Assembly: GCA_034189135.1 (NCBI GenBank)
Contig: JAXHVO010000059.1
Span: forward strand, 7,336-71,335
Origin: Thermodesulfobacteriota bacterium
GTDB taxonomy: Bacteria > Desulfobacterota > Desulfobacteria > Desulfobacterales > JAUWMJ01
DNA length: 64,000 nucleotides
Reading direction: 5' to 3'
The stretch's first letter is position 1, and each line of letters opens with the position of its first letter. This document shows positions 5,500-57,814 of this stretch, in pieces. The notes under the pieces were generated by a model. The model was not told the origin of the DNA and did not search any database. It saw only the letters and a program-made list of their open reading frames with translations. The translations under genes and the position numbers were made by a program.

Positions 5500-6750
5500 A
5501 TGATAGGTTCATTATTTGCAGGAATATCCGGGCTGAATGCAAATGCCACAGCCATGACTGTAATCGGAGACAACATAGCAAATGTAAACACCACCGGTTT
5601 TAAGTCGAACAGGGCGTCGTTTGCCAATGTGTTGAGCACGTCCTTGCAAGGTTCGGGTGGAAGCGATATTGGCAGAGGGGTCGCATTCTGGGGTTCAACC
5701 CCGTCATGGAGCCAGGGATCGGTTGAAAATACAGCCAACGCAACGGACATGGCCATAAACGGGCGTGGTTTTTTTATGGTAAATGACGAAAGCGGCCAAA
5801 CTTTATTTACCAGGGCCGGAGAATTTGCTTTTGACAGGAACGGTGATTTACGAAATCCGGATGGTCTCGCGGTTCAAGGATACGAAGTCACCGCCGTAGC
5901 TCCGGATGGAACATTAACCCTGGGTGCAATCATGAACATTGGTGTTCCCAGCGAGAGTACCTCACCTCCTGTTGCTACGGACGAGTTCACCATGGATATC
6001 AACCTCGATGCTGGCGCTGCAGTGACCGATACCTACTCCACATCACAGGTGTTTTACGATTCTCTGGGCAATGCGGTTCCGGTGACTTTTACATTTACGA
6101 GAGCTGCAGCGGTAGCTCCTGCCACCGCAACCTGGAATGTTGCAGCTGCGATTCCAGCATCAGCAGGAACAGGTGCTGCGGTTAGTGTTCCATCAATCGG
6201 ATTCGATGCAAACGGAAATATGATAGTACCTGCAGCTGATGCGACAGTCACCTTAACTTTAACAAATGGCGCTGCAAGTCCGCAGGCGATAAACTGGATG
6301 CTTTACGATCCAGCCGGTCCAAGCTTAGGTGATATTACAGGATATTCATCTACTTCCGTCACTACATTTCAGACTCAGAACGGATTCCCCGCAGGATCAC
6401 TCAGGGGTGTTTCAGTGGATGAATTGGGTGTGGTCACCGGGGCCTATTCCAACGGGCAGATGACCCCTCTTTACCAGGTTGCCCTGGCAGATTTTCCCAG
6501 TTATTATGGACTAAACAAGATGGGGAACAACCTGTATGCAGAATCGCTTGCATCGGGGCAAGCCCTGCCTGGCGTGGCACAAAGTGGCAGGCTGGGAAGT
6601 ATCAGCCCAAGTGCAGTGGAAATGTCAAATGTTGATCTTGCCCAGGAGTTTGTTAAAATGATTACCACTCAAAGGGCCTTTCAGGCAAATTCCAGGGTCA
6701 TTACCACCAGTGACGAAGTACTCAATGAATTGATTAATATTAAGCGATAA
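5500..6750 (+). CDS. flgE: Flagellar hook protein FlgE
   Basis: N-terminal GISGLNANATAMTVIGDNIANVNTTGFK and C-terminal QRAFQANSRVITTSDEVLNELINIKR. RBS GAGGAGGG. Confidence 0.95.
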   Translation: MIGSLFAGISGLNANATAMTVIGDNIANVNTTGFKSNRASFANVLSTSLQGSGGSDIGRGVAFWGSTPSWSQGSVENTANATDMAINGRGFFMVNDESGQTLFTRAGEFAFDRNGDLRNPDGLAVQGYEVTAVAPDGTLTLGAIMNIGVPSESTSPPVATDEFTMDINLDAGAAVTDTYSTSQVFYDSLGNAVPVTFTFTRAAAVAPATATWNVAAAIPASAGTGAAVSVPSIGFDANGNMIVPAADATVTLTLTNGAASPQAINWMLYDPAGPSLGDITGYSSTSVTTFQTQNGFPAGSLRGVSVDELGVVTGAYSNGQMTPLYQVALADFPSYYGLNKMGNNLYAESLASGQALPGVAQSGRLGSISPSAVEMSNVDLAQEFVKMITTQRAFQANSRVITTSDEVLNELINIKR

Positions 6751-6853: not shown

Positions 6854-7110
6854 AGTTATGAGTCCTTTCAGCTATAAGCGATCATCAGACGTCAAAGAGT
6901 TGACAATTTTAAATAAAAATTGACACTCGTATCACTGGTTTTTATTCTTTTCCCAGCCAATCACCGCTAAATATCATTTATTCCCACCTTCGGTTTGATG
7001 CAATTCCCTTGGTCTTTGATAATTATAGGCAAATACTTTCCTATAAGTTCAAACTGTTATGGACCACTGGTCATAGTCTTACCATATTCAAACCATGATA
7101 CCATTTCATA

Positions 7111-7126
7111 TGGCACAATACTTGCT
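7111..7126 (+). promoter_or_regulatory. sigma54 promoter candidate upstream of fliL
   Basis: TGGCACAATACTTGCT with correct GG-N10-GC spacing, 68 nt upstream of fliL. It is nearly identical to the fliK promoter. Confidence 0.65.
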
Positions 7127-7193: not shown

Positions 7194-7652
7194 ATGTCCA
7201 ATAAAATATTGCTCATACTCATTGGTGTTATTTTGCTGATCGTGATTGCGATGGGCGGGGGTTTTTTTATGATGTGGAGTAAGATGTCTTCTATGAATGT
7301 CGTCAACAGTGAAGAAGCGGATAACGAAATAGAAGAAGTGGTTGAAACAATGGGGCCGACTAAAAAGCTGGAAACATTCATAGTAAACTTGGGGGATAAA
7401 GGCGGAAAACGCTATTTGCGAGTCTCAATGGATTTAGAGCTGGAAAATGGGGAGTCAGCTAAAGTCGTGGATAAAAGGCTTCCGAAATTGAGAGATGCGG
7501 TTTTAATGATATTACCCACCAAAAAATATGAAGATATCGGTACGGTTCAGGGGAAAAGTGCTCTAAGAAATGAAATACTTACAAAACTAAACGAATTAAT
7601 GGAGCCGGAAGCAATTAAAAATATCTATTTCACTGAATTCGTTGTTCAGTAA
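7194..7652 (+). CDS. fliL: Flagellar basal-body-associated protein FliL
   Basis: 152 aa with an N-terminal TM helix and the FliL-type motif FIVNLGDKGGKRYLRVSMDLEL. RBS GGAGGA. Confidence 0.9.
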   Translation: MSNKILLILIGVILLIVIAMGGGFFMMWSKMSSMNVVNSEEADNEIEEVVETMGPTKKLETFIVNLGDKGGKRYLRVSMDLELENGESAKVVDKRLPKLRDAVLMILPTKKYEDIGTVQGKSALRNEILTKLNELMEPEAIKNIYFTEFVVQ

Positions 7653-12809: not shown

Positions 12810-13100
12810 CCTACAGAAAGATGACCAACCCGGAATAGATGCCATCCACCACAGGGGTGACATTGATTGACCTCCCAACCCGCACCACATTTCCAAACAG
12901 AAATACGTCATGCATGTTAACATCGGCAGCCAATTGTCGATGTGATGTGGCCAGGTGCCTAAAGGTTTTTCGTCAATAAATTATCACCTACCGTCAAACA
13001 ATTAACGCCTTGGATCATCCCCGTTTGAAAAATATTATTAACCTCAGATTATTATCAATCAAAATAAGGCGTTATTGAAATTATTAAGTTCCTTCAATGT

Positions 13101-13116
13101 AGGCACGAAACATGCA
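13101..13116 (+). promoter_or_regulatory. sigma54 promoter candidate upstream of flhA
   Basis: AGGCACGAAACATGCA with GG-N10-GC spacing, about 220 nt upstream of flhA. A second, mis-spaced GGCAC...TTTGC lies at about 13153. Confidence 0.5.
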
Positions 13117-13335: not shown

Positions 13336-15438
13336 ATGGAAGTGGTCAGTCAATCAAGGTTAGCGGCGCAAATTCCAATTATATCGAAAAACAGCGATAT
13401 AATAATTGCGTTTGTTGTCGTTAGTATTCTGGCATTTATGGTGATACCTTTGCCTCCGGTACTGCTCGACTTGCTCCTTTCGTTTAATATTACCTTTTCC
13501 CTGACCATTCTTCTTGTTGGTATGTACATCATAAAGCCCCTTGAATTTTCCGCATTCCCCAGTGTGCTCCTCATTGTCACATTGTTCAGGCTATCGCTCA
13601 ATGTGGCTTCAACCAGAATCATTCTTCTTCATGGGAACGAAGGAACAATGGCTGCCGGAAAGGTGATCAAAGCATTTGGAGGCTTTGTGGTCGGAGGAAA
13701 CTACCTGGTAGGAATTATCGTTTTTTTGATTCTGGTAATCATTAATTTTGTAGTTATAACAAAAGGAGCCGGAAGAATAGCAGAGGTTGCGGCCAGGTTT
13801 ACTTTGGATGGAATGCCGGGCAAACAGATGAGCATCGATGCGGATCTCAACGCCGGTTTAATCAGTGAAGAAGAAGCCAGGAAGAGAAGGGAGCAGATCA
13901 CCCAGGAGGCGGAATATTACGGTGCGATGGACGGAGCCAACAAATTTGTTCGCGGAGATGCCATCGCTGGAATAATTATTACCCTGATAAATATAATTGG
14001 CGGACTGGCAATCGGCGTATTTCAAAATTCAATGAGTTTCGCCCACGCGGCGCAGAATTATACCTTGCTCACCATAGGGGACGGACTGGTGACACAGGTC
14101 CCCGCTCTTATCGTATCGACTGCAGCCGGAGTTATTGTAAGCAGGGCAGGATCAGAAAAAAGTCTGGGAAAAGAAATGACCATGCAGATATTATTTCAGT
14201 ATCGAGCCGTTGCCGTTGCTTCAGCAGTCCTTTTTGGATTTGCGCTTGTCCCGGGACTGCCAGGAATTCCTTTCCTGCTTTTAGCAATGGGAGCAGCAGG
14301 TCTTGCCTTTATGGTGTTCAAGGCGGGTAAGAAAAGCCTTGCAAAAGAAGAAGCCGATAAGATGCTGCAAGAAAAAGCCGGGCCGGAAGAAAAGCCGGTA
14401 TCTCTTCCGCTCCTTGACGTACTTGGTCTCGAAGTCGGCTATGGGATTATTCACCTGGTAGATATGGAACAGGACGGCCAGCTTCTGGATCGAATTAAAT
14501 CTATTAGACGTCAGGTCGCACAGGAAATCGGCATTATTGTTCCACCCATTCATATCCAGGATAACATGCAGTTAAAGCCGGGAGAATATTCAATATTATT
14601 GAAGGGAAATGTAGTCGGAACCGGCGAGCTGATGACCAATTATTGTCTTGCCATGGATCCTGGAACTGTTCAGGGAAAGCTGGACGGGGTACAAACAAAA
14701 GAACCGACTTATGGACTGCCTGCAATCTGGATCAAGGAAAGCAAAAAAGAAGACGCCATAGCCAAAGGGTACACAGTCGTTGATCCAGCTACGGTTTTAA
14801 CTACCCATATCTCTGATGTGGTCAGGCGTTTTTCACATGAGTTGCTGGGGAGACAGGAGGTGCAGCAGATGCTGGACATGCTGAAAAACTCCCATCCAAA
14901 AGTTGTGGAAGAACTGATTCCGAATATGCTCTCACTCGGGGGCGTGGTGAAGGTTCTGCAGAACTTGCTGAAGGAACAGGTGCCTGTTAGAGATTTTCTC
15001 GCTATACTGGAGACGCTGGCTGATTGGGCGCCAATGGTAAAGGATATAGATATGCTGACGGAATATGTGCGGCATTCCCTGGCCAGAACCATTACCAACC
15101 TTCATCAAACCGATAAAGGCAAAATACCGGCGATTACATTGGGACACAGTATAGAAGAGTCCGTATCAGAAGCGATTCAGAGAACTGATCAGGGAAGCTT
15201 TGTTGCCATGGAACCGGATCTTGTACAAAAAATCGTTAATGCCCTTACCGGTTATATGGAAAGAATATCATCATTAAATTATCAACCGGTTATTTTATGT
15301 TCTGCCCAGATCAGGCTGCATTTCAAGAAGCTGATTGATCGTTTTATTTCAAATCTGGCTGTTATTTCATATGACGAACTGTCAAGTAATATTGAAATAG
15401 AGTCCTTGGGAATTGTGGAGTTATCAGATGCAGATTAA
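13336..15438 (+). CDS. flhA: Flagellar export-gate protein FlhA
   Basis: 700 aa with FHIPEP-family motifs such as GGNYLVGIIVFLILVIINFVVITKGAGRIAEVAARFTLDGMPGKQMSIDADL. Confidence 0.97.
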   Translation: MEVVSQSRLAAQIPIISKNSDIIIAFVVVSILAFMVIPLPPVLLDLLLSFNITFSLTILLVGMYIIKPLEFSAFPSVLLIVTLFRLSLNVASTRIILLHGNEGTMAAGKVIKAFGGFVVGGNYLVGIIVFLILVIINFVVITKGAGRIAEVAARFTLDGMPGKQMSIDADLNAGLISEEEARKRREQITQEAEYYGAMDGANKFVRGDAIAGIIITLINIIGGLAIGVFQNSMSFAHAAQNYTLLTIGDGLVTQVPALIVSTAAGVIVSRAGSEKSLGKEMTMQILFQYRAVAVASAVLFGFALVPGLPGIPFLLLAMGAAGLAFMVFKAGKKSLAKEEADKMLQEKAGPEEKPVSLPLLDVLGLEVGYGIIHLVDMEQDGQLLDRIKSIRRQVAQEIGIIVPPIHIQDNMQLKPGEYSILLKGNVVGTGELMTNYCLAMDPGTVQGKLDGVQTKEPTYGLPAIWIKESKKEDAIAKGYTVVDPATVLTTHISDVVRRFSHELLGRQEVQQMLDMLKNSHPKVVEELIPNMLSLGGVVKVLQNLLKEQVPVRDFLAILETLADWAPMVKDIDMLTEYVRHSLARTITNLHQTDKGKIPAITLGHSIEESVSEAIQRTDQGSFVAMEPDLVQKIVNALTGYMERISSLNYQPVILCSAQIRLHFKKLIDRFISNLAVISYDELSSNIEIESLGIVELSDAD

Positions 15439-16780
15439 GAGGTTTGAAGCGAAGAGTATGACAGAGGCCTTAAGGTTGATTAAAAAGGAACTGGGGTCTG
15501 AAGCGGTTATTTTATCGGCACGGAGTCTGAAAAAAGAAAGCCGTTTATTGGGGGCTTTGAAAAAAAGCGGTGTTGAAGTCACCGCAGCGACGGACCATTT
15601 ACCTTACCAACCGAAACAGAAAAGTGCATTGGTCAAAAGAGACTTTTATACGGATAAAAACGATCAGTTCAATTTTAACATGCAGGTGAAAAGGGAGGAT
15701 CAACATATAATATCATCTTTGCGGAGTAAATTAATATCTCAAGATATAAATGAAGATATAGCCGATAGACTGGCAAAAGAACTGAAAGAGATCCTTCCCA
15801 CAAAAAGTATCATGAATGAAATGATGGTGCAAGAGGCGTTGGATTCAATTATCAGCGGTATGGGAGTAAGGTTTGACCCCATAAAAGTTAATTTGGGGAG
15901 TCGCAAGGTCATAGCATTAATCGGACCTTCCGGCGCTGGAAAGACAACCACCGCTGTCAAGCTGGCGACTGCCTGGAAATTTGAAAAGAAAAGAGATGTT
16001 GCCCTGGTTATCATGGATGGTCACAGGATCGGTGCGGTGGATCAAATGAAGACTTATTCAAGAATTATAGGGGTGCCGGTGGCAATTGTTTCCGGTAGAA
16101 ACGAGTTGAGAGAAGCCATAAAAAAATTAAGATATAAGGATCTGGTGATTATAGATACTCCTGGATTGAACTGGCAAAATGACCTGCAGCTTGAAAAGTT
16201 TTATAAATGTTTTGAGAAGATGAAAAAAATTGAAACCCATCTTGTTCTCAGTGCAACCACCAAAGAGAAAGATTATATCAATATTGCAGAAAAATTGAAT
16301 AAGTTTGAAATCAACAGGTTGATATTTACCAAAATCGATGAGAGCAGCACCCACGGAAACATACTCAGCCACTTAATTAGAACGAAAATACCGGTTTCAT
16401 GTTTTACCTGCGGGCAAGAGATTCCTGAAAGTATTGAAGAGGCGTCTATGGATAGATTGCTCGGTTTGATTATAAACAAAGCAAAAGAAAAAAGATATGG
16501 GACCGGGTTTGTTAAAAAAATAGAAACCGTGGACAGTGAAGTGAAAACAGAAAGTGATATAAAAGAATATTTTGTGGCAAACCAAAATTCAGATGTTTTT
16601 CACCGACCCGGCTGCAAATGGACGAGGATGATAAAGCAGGATAATATTGTTGTTTTTAAAAGTGTGGCAGAGGCTGAAGAAAAAAGGTTTAAGCCATGCA
16701 GATATTGCAGGCCTAAACCGGAAGTAGAATATGAGTGCCTGCAATATGGTATGAGCAAAAGAAAAATCGCAAGCGGTTAA
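15428..16780 (+). CDS. flhF: SRP-type GTPase FlhF with an extra C-terminal Ada-like zinc-finger domain
   Basis: Begins MQIKRFEAKSMTEALRLIKKELG (canonical FlhF B-domain start). The ATG at 15428 overlaps the flhA stop. G domain motifs GPSGAGKTTT and DTPG are present. The tail VFHRPGCKW...FKPCRYCRP matches the Ada_Zn_binding pattern. Confidence 0.9.
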   Translation: MQIKRFEAKSMTEALRLIKKELGSEAVILSARSLKKESRLLGALKKSGVEVTAATDHLPYQPKQKSALVKRDFYTDKNDQFNFNMQVKREDQHIISSLRSKLISQDINEDIADRLAKELKEILPTKSIMNEMMVQEALDSIISGMGVRFDPIKVNLGSRKVIALIGPSGAGKTTTAVKLATAWKFEKKRDVALVIMDGHRIGAVDQMKTYSRIIGVPVAIVSGRNELREAIKKLRYKDLVIIDTPGLNWQNDLQLEKFYKCFEKMKKIETHLVLSATTKEKDYINIAEKLNKFEINRLIFTKIDESSTHGNILSHLIRTKIPVSCFTCGQEIPESIEEASMDRLLGLIINKAKEKRYGTGFVKKIETVDSEVKTESDIKEYFVANQNSDVFHRPGCKWTRMIKQDNIVVFKSVAEAEEKRFKPCRYCRPKPEVEYECLQYGMSKRKIASG

Positions 16781-19184: not shown

Positions 19185-19691
19185 ATGGGATTTAATGCAA
19201 CGCATGTATTTGAGACGAGTCTGGATGTGGTAGGGATTACACTTAGCTGTGTGATTATTTCCTATCTTATTTATAACAGAATAAAATACAATCAGCTGGT
19301 ATTAAGCAGAAAATATAATAAAAGTATGAGCACGTTTAAATCTGAAGTTGCGGTTAAGATGATTAAGCAACAAACAGAAAGAAGCTTTGATACCATTTGC
19401 GATATTATAAATAAGGAACAACGGAAATTCAAAAGACTGATGGAAAAGGAAGAACTTGAAAACGCAAAATATCTGATGATGATGATGGAGAAAGGCCACC
19501 TCCTTAAAAAAGTAATCAATGTAAAAGCCATGGATGAAGTGCAGCCGGGTATTACTGCAGATCCCTATGACGAAATATCCAAGATGGCCGGTTCCGGTAT
19601 GGGTGTGGAAAAAATATCCAAAAAAGTGGGGATGCCGCCAGGAGAAGTTGAACTGTATTTAAAGCTCAATAAAAATTATACTTTTAATTAG
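19185..19691 (+). CDS. Hypothetical membrane-anchored protein with a C-terminal HTH-like tail
   Basis: RBS AAGGAG 8 nt upstream and an N-terminal TM helix (VVGITLSCVIISYLIY). The C-terminus GMGVEKISKKVGMPPGEVELYLKLNK resembles tails of DUF2802-type flagellar-cluster proteins; this comparison is from memory and is not verified. Confidence 0.55.
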   Translation: MGFNATHVFETSLDVVGITLSCVIISYLIYNRIKYNQLVLSRKYNKSMSTFKSEVAVKMIKQQTERSFDTICDIINKEQRKFKRLMEKEELENAKYLMMMMEKGHLLKKVINVKAMDEVQPGITADPYDEISKMAGSGMGVEKISKKVGMPPGEVELYLKLNKNYTFN

Positions 19692-19698
19692 ATGGAGG

Positions 19699-20030
19699 AT
19701 CGGGGAGTTTTTCAATCTGTACTCAGTTCGTTCGGGGAAGCGCCCATTGGCCCGTATCAGCCTTAACAATCATTTCGAGAAACTGGCGTACGGTCCGCCT
19801 AGGCGGACTGAGATTCGATTTGAACCAGCCCCAAGGGACAGAATCCCACGGCAGCGTTGATCGTCTCTGCCTGTGTGTATTTAACTGAGAAGATAGGGGG
19901 CGTGTACAGAGTGCTGGGATTATTTGTTAAGGCTGATACGGGCCAATGGGCGCTTCCCCGAACGAACCACTAACAATCATTAAAGCTCAAACGGTTCATA
20001 AAAAAGGCCTAGGCAAAAATTGCCCGGTGG
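19699..20030 (+). repeat. Family-1 palindromic element, copy A
   Basis: 44-nt arms 19726-19769 and 19924-19967 are perfect reverse complements (44/44). They flank a 154-bp core. Outer arms are GATCGGGGAGTTTTTCAATC... and ...AAAATTGCCCGGTGGC. Confidence 0.85.
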
Positions 20031-37180: not shown

Positions 37181-37361
37181 TTTAACATCGGGCATTATTC
37201 ACTCACACTCCCAAAAGCATATTAAGCTGCTTACGTTCGATCAAAACCCGACAGCAGCAAACAACGACATCTTAAATCACGCCTTGCTTTCAAAGATATC
37301 AATAAAACTTGCCAATCAATTGACACGTCTTGCCAATAATTTGGCACTTTCACTTTGAAGC

Positions 37362-37449
37362 AAAAAAAAATAAAAACCCTGCCGGGGGGATGGCAGGGTT
37401 TTAAGGAGGCGGGAATGAAGGAAAGGAGAGAAACTTCATTCCGTTTGAT
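37362..37449 (-). ncRNA. Predicted sigma54-dependent small RNA (about 88 nt) with anti-SD motifs
   Basis: Lies downstream of a perfect minus-strand sigma54 promoter. Hairpin 1 is GGAAUGAAG/CUUCAUUCC with loop UUUCUCUCCUUUC. The linker is CGCCUCCUUAA. The terminator hairpin is AACCCUGCC/GGCAGGGUU followed by UUUAUUUUUUUUU. No ORF is present. Confidence 0.45.
37375..37402. terminator. Bidirectional Rho-independent terminator
   Basis: 9-bp GC-rich stem AACCCTGCC/GGCAGGGTT. The + side has TTTT. The - side has a much stronger T-tract (complement of the A9-T-A5 run at 37362-37376). Confidence 0.7.
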
Positions 37450-37459
37450 TTAATAAGTA

Positions 37460-37475
37460 TGCAACTTTAGTGCCA
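37460..37475 (-). promoter_or_regulatory. sigma54 promoter (minus strand) driving the predicted sRNA
   Basis: The minus strand reads TGGCACTAAAGTTGCA, a perfect TGGCAC-N5-TTGCA consensus. Confidence 0.65.
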
Positions 37476-37542
37476 AGTAAGTTTGGAAGTTGTAAGGTCT
37501 AAAAACGGGAAACCTGGGTGACAAACAAAACAATCGATGTGG

Positions 37543-37877
37543 GATCGGAGAGTATTTCAATCTCCACTCAGTTCGTCCGGAGGAGCGCCCATTTGCCCGT
37601 ATCAGCCTTAACAAATAAGTCCGGCACTCTGTACACGCCCCCTATCTTCTCAGTTAAACCCATACAGGCAGAGACGATCAACGTTGTCGTGGGATTCTGT
37701 CCTTTGGGGCTGGTTCAAATTGAATCTAAGCGAGATAGCTGCCGAACGCCGGTTTCTCGAAATGATTGTTAAGACTGATACGGGCAAATGGGCGCTCCTC
37801 CGGACGAACTACTAACAATCATTAAAGCTCAAACGGTTCATAAAAAAGACCATTGATAAGAAACTCACCGAGCCATC
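37543..37877 (+). repeat. Family-1 palindromic element, copy B (core inverted)
   Basis: Arms 37571-37614 and 37767-37810 pair 43/44. The outer arms are oriented as in copy A, but the 152-bp core is the reverse complement of the A/D core. Confidence 0.85.
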
Positions 37878-37909
37878 AATTATTTTATATACAATAATCG
37901 AATTTGGAA

Positions 37910-37925
37910 CGGCACAAAGATTGCA
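37910..37925 (+). promoter_or_regulatory. sigma54 promoter candidate upstream of cheW
   Basis: CGGCACAAAGATTGCA with GG-N10-GC spacing. Confidence 0.6.
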
Positions 37926-37944
37926 GATGTTTATCATTATTCAC

Positions 37945-37972
37945 TAAAGTTTTTAACAGAATATCCCGATAC
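37945..37972 (+). promoter_or_regulatory. sigma28 promoter candidate upstream of cheW
   Basis: CTAAAGTTT...N16...CCCGATAC. It shares the CTAAAG(T/G)TTT -35 region with the flgM and OMP promoters. Confidence 0.5.
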
Positions 37973-38064
37973 AAATAAAAAGACAATGCTAGTATGAAAG
38001 GGCAAAAACCTGAAACCGATGAATGCAAAAATATATCAATCATCAATATGGGAGGTATAAGAAA

Positions 38065-38577
38065 ATGACGGAAACAACAAAAACAATGGATCAGGCGGTA
38101 AGAGCAATGGCCGACAAGGAAGGTAAATACCTGACATTTACCCTGGCGAACGAGGAGTATGGCATCGGTATTCTTAAGATAAAAGAGATTATCGGTATGA
38201 TGCCGATTACCACGGTGCCGCGAACACCTGAGTTTGTGAAAGGGGTGATCAACCTCAGGGGAAAGGTGATACCGGTCATGGATCTGAGGTTACGATTCGG
38301 CATGGAAGCCATGGAATACAATGACAGGACCTGTATCATTGTGGTGGAAATCGAAAGTCAGGCAGGAACGGTCCAAATAGGGGCGGTGGTAGATTCCGTA
38401 TCTGAGGTATTGAATGTCGGTGGTAATGATATAGAAGAAACCCCGTCATTCGGGGCAAAGCTTGATACGGAATATATACTTGGCATGGCCAAGATGGAAG
38501 GCGGTGTGAAGATTCTGCTTGATATTGATAAAGTGTTAAACGATGAGGAAATTGCTGCTCTGGAAAAGGCAGCATAG
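38065..38577 (+). CDS. cheW: Chemotaxis coupling protein CheW
   Basis: CheW domain YLTFTLANEEYGIGILKIKEIIGM...VINLRGKVIPVMDLR. Start at ATG 38065 behind RBS GGAGG. Confidence 0.93.
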   Translation: MTETTKTMDQAVRAMADKEGKYLTFTLANEEYGIGILKIKEIIGMMPITTVPRTPEFVKGVINLRGKVIPVMDLRLRFGMEAMEYNDRTCIIVVEIESQAGTVQIGAVVDSVSEVLNVGGNDIEETPSFGAKLDTEYILGMAKMEGGVKILLDIDKVLNDEEIAALEKAA

Positions 38578-41810: not shown

Positions 41811-43069
41811 ATGAAAAAGTCATCAATGACCATTTTTGTAATCTGTTTGGTTTTAGGATTATCTGCACAGGGTTATGCGATTAACGGACCACTGATAGAC
41901 GGTCAGGGTACCAGGATTATGGGTATGGGAGCAACCAATATTGCGGTTACCGATGACAGTAATACCATAGCCAACAACCCCGGAGCCATTTTTGCTCATG
42001 ATGAGGGTGTTATCGATTTGGATATAGGTCTTGTTGCCCCTCATCCGGATTTTAAAAACGCTCTTAATGATGAAGACGGACAAAACCTTCTCTGTCCCCT
42101 TCTTGCTGTCAGTTTCTTATCCACACCTTTAAATGAAAAATTTAAACTGGGCTTCGGCCTTTTTCCGATGGGTGGTTTGGCATCAGAATACCGGCTTACT
42201 AATGCTAATTATGGGGATCAGGTTACGAGTCAAACTTATCTTTTTTGAAAATGTTGCCTGCAGTCGGATACAAGGTTAATGAAAATTTTTCTGTGGGACT
42301 TTCATTTGGCATCGGATACCAGAGCATGAGGTTGAAAATGCCTTATCAGGTTCATTCGGGCGCTTTGGCAGGTAATGTTATGGTTGCCGACATGCGCATG
42401 GAGGGTTCTGATTATTGCAGCAATTTAGGTATTCTTTATAAGGTTAACGATGCCGTAAAAATTGGTTTCGTATACAAGTCAGAGACAAAGATAAATATGT
42501 CAGGAGATGCAAACGTGGATGCATCTGCACTGGGAGCCGGTACGGCAAAGTATGATGTGGAAGCAACCTATAAATGGCCGCAATCAGCCGGTGTTGGTAT
42601 ATCCTATCTGGCAACCCCCAAATTACTTGTTGCGGCGGATGTTGAATGGATAAACTGGAAAAAAGCGATGCAAAGCCTTGAGTTCGAATTTTCCCAAGGT
42701 AATAGCGGATTGCTGCCTCCCGCACTCAACGATGAATTGCCCCTTGACTGGGACGATCAATATGTTTTCAGACTTGGCGTCGAATACGAAGCGACGGAAA
42801 ACCTGGATCTTCGTTGTGGGGTTACATACGGCAAATCACCTATTCCTGATAACACGGTAATGTCTATATTATGCACAATTATCGAATGGTCGGCAACTAT
42901 CGGGCTGGGTTATAATGTCACTGAAGATGTTTCTTTTAATGCAGCCTATCTCCATTCCTTTGACCATACGCAGGATTCGGATGTAAGCTTAATCGGTAAT
43001 GAATATGATGGAAGCTCAACCGGTGTGTCAATAGATGCAATCTATATGGGATTGACTGTAAATTTTTAG
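41811..43069 (+). pseudogene. FadL/OmpP1/TodX-family outer-membrane channel, split by a frameshift in a T6 run
   Basis: ORF 41811-42248 has a signal peptide and GQGTRIMGMGATNIAVTDDSNTIANNPGAI. ORF 42245-43069 has beta-strand repeats and ends with a terminal Phe (LTVNF). One extra T at 42241-42246 would fuse them into about 420 aa. Confidence 0.7.
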
Positions 43070-56294: not shown

Positions 56295-56342
56295 TTTCTT
56301 AAATTATGTTTATCCTCTTAACCTGTTAGAATTAATTGAGGA

Positions 56343-56668
56343 GGCCGGGGGTTTCTCCTTAAAGGTTTTTGGTAAGCCGTTGCGTTTTAATGATCGTCAA
56401 CGGTTCGCCTTGGGGATGGCCTATTCGCCCGTACAAGCCTTAACAAATTATTACAGTGCTTTGCAGCCGCCCCCTATATTCTGCGTTACGCTCATACAGG
56501 CAGAGACGATCATCGCCATCGTGGGAATCTGTCTACTGGGGCTGGCTCAAATCTTATTTCAGCGAGATAGCTGCCGTACGTCAGTTCCTCGATATTATTG
56601 TTAAGGCTTGTACGGGCGAATAGGCCATCCCCAAGACGAACAGAGCAGGGATTGAAAAACTCCCCGAT
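56343..56668 (-). repeat. Family-1 palindromic element, copy C (whole element in reverse orientation)
   Basis: Arms 56403-56446 and 56598-56641 pair 43/44. The long outer arm is on the left and the short GATTGAAAAACTCCCCGAT arm is on the right. The core-to-arm relationship is the same as in copy A. Confidence 0.8.
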
Positions 56669-57458: not shown

Positions 57459-57797
57459 GATGGGTCGGGGAGTTTTTTAATCTCTACTCAGTTCATCCGG
57501 AGAAGCGCCCATTTGCCCGTATCAGCCTTAACAATGATTTTGAGAAACCGGCGTACGGTCCGCCTAGGCGGACTGAGATTCGATTTGAACCAGCCCCAAA
57601 GGATAGAACCTCACGGCAGCGTTAATCATCTCTGCCTGTATGGATTTAATTGAGAAGATAGGGGGCGTGTACAGAGTGCTGGAATTATTTGTTAAGGCTG
57701 ATACGGGCAAATGGGCGCTTCTCCGGATGAACCTCTATCAACCATTAAATAACAAACAATTCACCAAAAATGCCATTAATAAGAAACTCCCCGATGC
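57459..57797 (+). repeat. Family-1 palindromic element, copy D
   Basis: Arms 57491-57534 and 57689-57732 pair 44/44. The core is about 90% identical to copy A. It fills the convergent gap between the hydrolase gene and cinA. Confidence 0.85.
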
Positions 57798-57814
57798 CTC
57801 AGTTATGCTATTCT

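Follow-up and report, generated by a model that had tools for sequence, protein, structure and literature searches.

The 64,000-nt window analyzed here (the whole stretch of Thermodesulfobacteriota bacterium contig JAXHVO010000059.1 from position 7,336 to 71,335) spans a flagellar and chemotaxis cluster. All genes listed for the cluster lie on the plus strand, in the order fliH, fliI, fliK, flgE (5500-6750), fliL, fliM, flhA, flhF, flhG, fliA, flgF, cheA, cheB, flgK, flgL, an unknown open reading frame (ORF), cheD, cheW, a methyl-accepting chemotaxis protein gene, and a GGDEF gene. Our subject is an element on the minus strand of the 840-bp spacer between cheD and cheW, a predicted small RNA (sRNA) gene that runs toward cheD, in convergent orientation, and away from a sigma-54-like cheW promoter (CGGCACAAAGATTGCA, at 37910).

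The element begins with a -24/-12 promoter for sigma-54 at 37475-37460 (TGGCACTAAAGTTGCA), which matches the TGGCAC-N5-TTGCA consensus perfectly, as the original prediction had read it. The canonical spacing of the -24 GG and -12 GC is present, and is kept in the homologues described below, as in sRNAs of the sigma-54 class. Only two perfect matches to TGGCAC-N5-TTGCW occur in the 64 kb, this promoter and another at 7111, before fliL. When one mismatch was allowed, we found seven matches compared to 2.2 expected, and several of the one-mismatch sites precede motility genes (fliK, 3039; flgF, 20090; cheW, 37910).

With the transcription start site (TSS) set ~12 nt past the -12 element, near 37449, and the 3′ end placed within the U-tract, the predicted transcript is ~80-88 nt long (37449-37362, minus strand), an extent that draws on the fold, the conservation peak, the alignments, and a covariance model. 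The 88-nt sequence folds with a minimum free energy (MFE) of -28.9 kcal/mol (z = -7.6), and none of 200 shuffled sequences was as stable. This fold is exactly the one first described for the element. A 7-nt leader precedes hairpin 1, which has a 9-bp stem (GGAAUGAAG, 37442-37434, with CUUCAUUCC, 37420-37412) and a 13-nt loop (UUUCUCUCCUUUC, 37433-37421) that holds motif 1, CUCCUUUC. The 9-nt linker that follows (CGCCUCCUU, 37411-37403), which constitutes motif 2, is unpaired in both the MFE and centroid structures. The gene is closed by an intrinsic terminator (37402-37362) consisting of an 11-bp GC-rich stem (AAAACCCUGCC/GGCAGGGUUUU, 37402-37373), an 8-nt C-rich loop, and UAUUUUUUUUU. A terminator scan called this hairpin, with its U9 tract, on the minus strand only; since just UUUU follows the stem on the plus strand, no terminator was called there, in line with the strand difference that had been predicted. 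Also as predicted, no ORF of at least 40 amino acids (aa) fits the transcript. The description of the RNA as antisense to the che/flagellar direction holds for its geometric orientation but not beyond it, as the RNA stops short of cheD and no gene overlaps it.

We collected relatives of the locus through the CheD protein, using no RNA information. Five syntenic loci in which CheD is 79-86% identical (L001, L020, L023, L024, and L027) bear the element with hardly any change from promoter through RNA body to terminator, TGGCAY-N5-TTGCA being retained in 5/5. In these five relatives, the arrangement named in the original prediction is kept. The closest named genome locus, L001, is from a Desulfobacteraceae metagenome-assembled genome (MAG). 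A column-wise profile over cheD, the spacer, and cheW revealed a 175-bp conservation island (37301-37476) with identities of 0.71-0.96. Identity peaks at 0.93-0.96 over 37390-37448, compared to ~0.85 for cheD coding sequence and 0-0.3 for the flanking spacer. The spacing from promoter to hairpin is conserved in the alignment. Two other metagenome contigs (L021, 36.5 kb, and L022, 100 kb) encode the same CheD protein as L020; both end 86 bp past cheD, before the sRNA and the boxes beyond its terminator, possibly because strain variants or repeats in the cheD spacer broke the assembly.

To these loci, a metagenome scan added 14, using a pattern in which the promoter and the two motifs were required and both stems were left free. 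Thirteen are clear homologues (11 distinct sequences), including two diverged lineages, L028 and L036/L041. We set aside L032, a chance pattern match lacking hairpin and terminator. A covariance model (R1), built from 16 distinct sequences (alignment A3), scored the window copy at 112.9 bits and identified a further divergent member, L043 (40.2 bits, E 3e-8), in a locus that had been fetched for another reason. L043 carries its own perfect promoter (TGGCACAGTACTTGCT), a covarying terminator with different stem bases, and a box. The total is 17 distinct homologues in Desulfobacteraceae-like MAGs and metagenomes, five found by synteny, 11 by pattern, and one by covariance model. Loci L001, L020, L023, L024, and L029-L041 derive from sediment and groundwater. 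Neither nhmmer nor R1 detected a second copy in the window.

The terminator is supported by covariation. Three stem pairs show compensatory double changes, from C-G to U-A at two and from A-U to G-C at one. Pairing is possible in 99% of cells, compared to 39-63% when partner columns are slid, and 0/500 shuffles matched the observed values. RNAalifold independently gave the same two helices. In three divergent lineages, the U-tract lies 3′ of the terminator on the promoter strand, while the opposite strand has U3 or none. Thus, promoter and terminator agree on the strand.

The body of the RNA is constrained in a different way. Both arms of hairpin 1 are invariant in 16/16 aligned homologues, and since neither arm was part of the search pattern, this indicates strong constraint on the sequence. 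CCUCCUU in the linker is invariant in alignments A2 and A3, within the variants ACCUCCUUA and CACCUCCUU; the CACCUCCUU-type reading is found in L028, L036, and L043, the last with the linker CACCUCCUCCU. These parts form one invariant pyrimidine tract, CUCCUUUC-CUUCAUUCC-NR-CCUCCUU, of which the loop and linker are exposed.

We also examined the plus strand, where the complement of the linker is a perfect AAGGAGG, followed 5 nt on by an ATG and a 12-codon frame (MKERRETSFRLI). This mini-ORF has 5 codons in L023, L027, and L033 (stop at codon 6), 12-16 codons in others, and more than 28 in several, and is frameshifted in L040. Because of the premature stops and the frameshift, we rejected it as a coding sequence. 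With the mini-ORF truncated or frameshifted in four homologues, the element shows no conserved coding, as is the case for sRNAs of the sigma-54 class.

Conservation, covariation, the U-tracts, and the decay of the mini-ORF all agree with the idea from which we started, a discrete non-coding sRNA gene on the minus strand with a sigma-54 promoter and exposed motifs resembling the anti-Shine-Dalgarno (anti-SD) sequence. Read from sequence and comparison, the anatomy of this predicted gene, its strand, the purifying selection on it, and its non-coding nature are established. The comparative data make it highly probable that the element is a real, selected, non-coding small RNA transcribed from a sigma-54 promoter; the sRNA is very likely genuine and sigma-54-dependent. 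The reading that we favor, with a probability of roughly 0.6, is that the spacer contains a stand-alone sigma-54-dependent gene for a small regulatory RNA of ~80-88 nt, belonging to an uncatalogued family of Desulfobacteraceae-like Thermodesulfobacteriota.

The two exposed motifs suggest how such an RNA could act. We take the linker motif CCUCCUU(A), in its ACCUCCUUA and CACCUCCUU variants, to be a copy of the 3′ tail (the anti-SD sequence) of 16S rRNA, the host's own 16S gene lying outside the window, and the loop motif CUCCUUUC presumably matches the extended 16S tail of many bacteria. Motifs of this kind pair with GGAGG-type ribosome-binding sites, which is the mechanism of alpha-r14/15, RoxS/RsaE, and RNAIII-type regulators. 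By this route, the sRNA probably represses translation, through pairing with Shine-Dalgarno regions; that it acts by anti-SD pairing on mRNAs is, in our judgment, an evenly balanced proposition. We searched for targets within the 64-kb window. An RNA duplex scan of the whole window was uninformative, being dominated by purine-rich coding stretches and long gappy pairings. When the scan was limited to ribosome-binding sites, flgE (-18.8 kcal/mol) and flgF (-17.1 kcal/mol) ranked first.

The conserved island continues for ~60 bp past the U-tract and takes in two copies of an unstranded GYCAA-N4-TTGRC palindrome. Box A (GCCAATAATTTGGC, 37332-37345), a candidate site for a bacterial enhancer-binding protein (bEBP), is centered at ~+110 from the predicted TSS; box B (GCCAATCAATTGAC, 37311-37324), 21 bp from box A, is centered at ~+131. 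Box A is centered at +107 to +110 in 12/12 close homologues scanned and box B at +128 to +131 in 10/12, with L024 and L035 scoring box A only. The half-sites GYCAA/TTGRC are conserved and the central 4 nt are variable. Perfect GTCAA-N4-TTGAC boxes also occur in the divergent homologues, in unrelated gene contexts (L041, +134 and +387; L043, ~+130; L028, +281).

The window contains three perfect boxes compared to 0.37 expected, and 0/100 shuffles reached three. The third (GTCAAAGAGTTGAC, 6891-6904) lies ~210 bp upstream of the fliL sigma-54 promoter (7111-7126) and is conserved at equal distance in relatives (L046-L050), within an otherwise weakly conserved spacer; in L049 and L050 it reads GTCAAAGTGTTGAC, with one change in the central 4 nt. 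Two near-boxes, GTCAATAAATTATC (12972-12985) and GTCAAACAATTAAC (12993-13006), precede flhA, ~100-125 bp upstream of the sigma-54-like AGGCACGAAACATGCA (AGGCAC-N5-ATGCA, 13101-13116). They are 21 bp apart, so the tandem spacing is common to the flhA spacer and the sRNA. From this sharing of cis elements, we infer a single enhancer-binding activator for fliL and the sRNA, and probably for flhA as well.

The boxes resemble the sites of the flagellar regulators FleQ and FlrA. Like these, they are 14-bp palindromes with GTCA...TGAC half-sites, and they match the outer half-sites of the Pseudomonas FleQ box consensus, GTCaNTAAAtTGAC (PMC6120874). Boxes of this type accompany the sigma-54 promoters of fliL and flhA, and those of the sRNA lie downstream of its promoter; in P. 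aeruginosa, FleQ likewise has sites beyond the RpoN site at flhA, fliE, and fliL (PMC6120874 and its reference 10). The phylum differs. The consensus was derived in Pseudomonas, and GCCAA/TTGGC is a frequent reading among the sRNA boxes. This likeness suggests candidate sites for a FleQ-like activator. We found no FleQ homologue in the window and no enhancer-binding protein gene among the window ORFs scanned.

In the window, the promoters of the sRNA and of cheW are separated by a repeat, ~240-350 bp long (37536-37885), that resembles a miniature inverted-repeat transposable element (MITE). It has 45-nt terminal inverted repeats (37570-37614 and 37766-37810, 98% complementary) and is missing in relatives, in which the two promoters are ~120 bp apart, compared to 435 bp here. 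Since the insertion starts 61 bp upstream of the sRNA promoter, nothing essential to this promoter need lie close upstream, which fits a downstream enhancer. Three further copies with 77-88% identity are present in the window (19691-20009, 56330-56668, and 57462-57806), one of them immediately upstream of the flgF sigma-54-like promoter. On the far side of the insertion, a second conserved island (37913-37987) spans the cheW sigma-54-like promoter and leader. The cheW ORF (38023-38577) opens with an ATG at 38023, but its likely start is 38065, which has a GGGAGG ribosome-binding site and gives a protein of 170 aa, the length seen in all relatives. The 10-mer CACTAAAGTT, from the spacer of the sRNA promoter (37463-37472), reappears on the opposite strand at 37942-37951 in the conserved cheW leader (TTCACTAAAGTTTTT). 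The 10-mer is also in the cheW leader of L020 and L023, and this may be coincidence.

Several observations weigh against the sRNA reading or against parts of it. Because the search pattern required the promoter and both motifs, the agreement of the metagenome homologues on those features is circular; the homologues independent of the motif search are the five synteny loci and L043. As hairpin 1 is invariant and shows no covariation, its pairing is a prediction from the fold, and in L043 the 3′ arm is altered and the hairpin lost, which leaves the pyrimidine tract fully single-stranded. No specific conserved target emerged from the duplex scans of the window. The best ribosome-binding-site match, flgE, is not conserved: it falls to -9.8 kcal/mol in a relative with the same sRNA core and is not kept in L046 or L047. 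The box is not enriched in the window when one mismatch is allowed, and its kinship with FleQ sites is one of resemblance only. The source is an uncultured MAG, and the sRNA gene is known from sequence alone.

For a role in motility in particular, the evidence is divided. We detected no element by nhmmer or R1 beside cheD in relatives with at most 72% CheD identity (L002-L014) or in L025, which has a histidine kinase gene in place of cheW; the sequence of L026 stops too close to cheD to tell. The family is thus real but phylogenetically narrow at the cheD locus. The divergent homologues L028, L036/L041, and L043 lie in non-motility neighborhoods. On the other side, the box type shared with the fliL promoter is the best support for placing the sRNA in a motility regulon, and near-copies of the box precede flhA. 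The proposal in the original prediction that the RNA regulates flagella or chemotaxis is thus favored by the shared boxes and disfavored by the neighborhoods of the divergent copies, the absence of the element beside distant cheD genes, and the lack of conservation of the flgE match. That the sRNA belongs to the flagellar sigma-54 regulon is plausible and unproven, and we would place it near the midpoint between belief and doubt.

We considered whether a genuine RNA might serve as a mimic of the 16S 3′ tail, or as a decoy, rather than as a gene-specific mRNA repressor. It could compete globally for strong Shine-Dalgarno sequences, or sequester a protein or purine-rich RNA that reads the pyrimidine tract. 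Both motifs copy the 16S tail, as CUCCUUUC and (A/G)CCUCCUU(A), the latter reading CACCUCCUU in L028, L036, and L043. The invariant tract is ~26 nt and includes the part buried in the stem, which is more constraint than a short seed usually needs, and the failure to find a specific conserved target in 64 kb would be expected of a decoy. However, those 64 kb are all of the genome that the target scan covered, the known sRNAs with C/U-rich loops (RoxS/RsaE, alpha-r14/15, and RepG) act on specific mRNAs, and a single-copy gene for an 85-nt RNA is an implausible source of a stoichiometric ribosome competitor. We regard this explanation as unlikely.

The island could instead be regulatory architecture at the DNA level, with no functional RNA. 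It would combine a bidirectional terminator of the cheD operon with palindromes bound by protein (the two boxes and the inverted repeat GGAATGAAG-N13-CTTCATTCC) and with a sigma-54 site poised to serve the divergent cheW promoter. Invariant, non-covarying arms of hairpin 1 are what a protein-binding palindrome would show, the terminator hairpin is also located 3′ of cheD on the plus strand, and both the boxes and the cheW sigma-54 promoter are nearby, with ~120 bp between the two promoters in relatives. Against this stands the recurrence of the whole module (promoter, body, terminator, and box) in L028, L041, and L043 without a nearby cheD or cheW. The U-tract consistently keeps to the promoter strand, the distance from promoter to hairpin is conserved, and in the window the ~350-bp MITE splits the module from the cheW promoter without the module having eroded. 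A purely DNA-level function is very improbable.

Because the promoter faces the 3′ end of cheD from a distance of 180 bp, it might serve to drive antisense transcription or interference into the convergent cheD operon, with the short RNA as a by-product. We give this little credence, as the strong conserved terminator (11 bp, U9) would halt transcription ahead of cheD, the 180 bp between terminator and cheD are poorly conserved except for the boxes, and homologues elsewhere have no convergent gene.

Least credible of all is a plus-strand product, either the tiny peptide MKERRETSFRLI made from AAGGAGG-N5-ATG or a purine- and GGA-rich leader of the CsrA-binding type, of which the anti-SD motifs would merely be the complement: every homologue has AAGGAGG, the 5-nt spacer, and ATG, and four GGA triplets occur within 30 nt, but, besides the inconstant peptide length and the L040 frameshift, the ORF directly follows a terminator hairpin with no plus-strand promoter, the plus-strand U-tract is absent in L028 and only U3 in L041, and the conserved sigma-54 promoter faces the opposite way.

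In divergent lineages, the sRNA directly follows a gene (L041, 937-1572, minus strand; L043, 3001-3612, plus strand) whose ~200-aa product (P0121-P0149) joins an NrdR-type zinc ribbon to an HTH_8 domain of the Fis type. In its HTH part, this protein shares ~63-76% identity with the C-terminal ends of AAA+ sigma-54 activators, of which many are ~353 aa long (P0210-P0232). This likeness suggests a protein with the DNA specificity of a bEBP but without the ATPase, possibly an anti-activator. Among loci with homologues of this gene, the sRNA accompanies it in L043 but not in L044 or L045; in L042, Ns mask the sequence. In L045, a perfect box (GTCAAACATTTGAC, 1059-1072) adjoins the zinc-ribbon/HTH_8 gene, ~115 bp upstream of the sigma-54-like TGGCATGCTTCCTGCT (1181-1196), which precedes cheR and a PAS histidine kinase. 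A tblastn search of the window found no homologue of the protein.

A more speculative version of the decoy idea draws these strands together. The RNA might imitate the 16S 3′ tail in a regulated manner, with two anti-SD copies, and be induced by the flagellar master sigma-54 activator through an enhancer beyond the terminator. It would then be a broad competitor for strong ribosome-binding sites, or a decoy for an anti-SD factor, that throttles translation during flagellar assembly instead of silencing a small set of particular mRNAs, and the zinc-ribbon plus Fis-HTH protein next to it in some lineages may compete for the same boxes. We regard this version as quite unlikely.

Elsewhere in the window, the FlhF-like SRP-type GTPase (15413-16780) has an Ada-type zinc-binding domain at its C-terminus (PF02805, residues 385-434, E 7.9e-10), an unusual fusion for FlhF. 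A FadL/TodX-type outer-membrane transporter is seemingly split between two overlapping ORFs (41811-42248 and 42245-43069) that match profile positions 10-124 and 142-418, which may reflect a frameshift or a pseudogene.

Returning to the favored reading, a stand-alone regulatory sRNA gene, we propose the following model. Sigma-54 RNA polymerase would bind TGGCAC-N5-TTGCA (37475-37460), and an enhancer-binding ATPase would open the polymerase complex, probably from the two boxes beyond the terminator (~+110 and +131), an unusual position. The same box type would serve the flagellar fliL sigma-54 promoter. Transcription would start near 37449 and stop at the strong terminator (37402-37362), yielding an RNA that presents the near-invariant pyrimidine tract, with exposed loop and linker copying the 16S rRNA 3′ tail. 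Its most likely action would be to pair with purine-rich Shine-Dalgarno regions of target mRNAs, excluding the 30S subunit and repressing translation. Within this model, we infer the expression of the RNA, the identity of its activator, its targets, and the link to motility.

If expressed, the RNA would represent a new sRNA family in environmentally abundant, largely uncultured sulfate reducers, in which post-transcriptional regulation is almost unexplored, and would be a second, independently evolved sigma-54-class sRNA tied to flagellar control, after CJnc230 of Campylobacter. The locus would also offer a clean natural case of a candidate sigma-54 enhancer downstream of a complete gene, and the GYCAA-N4-TTGRC box provides a starting point for tests of the flagellar sigma-54 regulon in this group. 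No general concept is changed, as sigma-54, anti-SD, and flagellar sRNAs are already established.

We compared the element with known systems. No Rfam 15 family matched it at the gathering threshold; the only match at that level in the window was a tRNA. The best sub-threshold alignments were to alpha-r14 (RF02344; 28.6 bits against a threshold of 58.8, E 0.0044, with the first hairpin missing) and to FsrA, of the RoxS type (RF02273; 24.7 against 80 bits), and the likeness is limited to low-complexity CU motifs and the terminator, so the element belongs to neither family. The alpha-r14/alpha-r15 (AbcR) CCUCCUCCC RNAs and RoxS/RsaE/FsrA do resemble it in having exposed C/U-rich loop or linker motifs complementary to ribosome-binding sites. 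However, alpha-r14 is an alphaproteobacterial RNA with three hairpins and CCUCCUCCC loops, while our element comes from another phylum and has a sigma-54 promoter.

Other sRNAs share the mode of transcription. Qrr of Vibrio, GlmY/GlmZ, CrcZ, NrsZ, and Pxr have sigma-54 promoters, bEBP control, and Rho-independent terminators. The element has in common with these the sigma-54 promoter and the Rho-independent terminator, but Qrr has four hairpins rather than two and other sequence motifs. None of this group matched by covariance model at gathering thresholds or at E up to 10, and Qrr (RF00378) was wholly absent from the permissive Rfam scan. Closer in phylogeny are Dv_sRNA2 of Desulfovibrio vulgaris, which is sigma-54-dependent and under the bEBP DVU0679, and two unannotated RpoN-dependent sRNAs of D. 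alaskensis G20 (PMC3333781, PMC4045070). These too come from sulfate-reducing former Deltaproteobacteria and are stand-alone small RNA genes with a -24/-12 promoter and a dedicated enhancer-binding regulator. A difference is that the candidate enhancer of our sRNA is downstream of the terminator. Their functions, too, are unknown, and as they are not in Rfam, they were compared by description. CJnc230 (FlmE) of Campylobacter jejuni, which belongs to the flagellar hierarchy, is RpoN-dependent and represses translation of its target mRNAs by base pairing, but is processed from the 3′ end of the RpoN-dependent flgE mRNA and has no promoter of its own (PMC11187230). In contrast, our element occupies the cheD-cheW spacer, on the strand opposite these genes and with a promoter of its own, and its homologues are not always in flagellar loci; it is no sRNA of the CJnc230 type. 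Since no Rfam family matches at threshold and none of the known systems fits, we conclude that the element would function like the known sigma-54 and flagellar sRNA systems without belonging to any of them, and that it represents a new family within a known kind.

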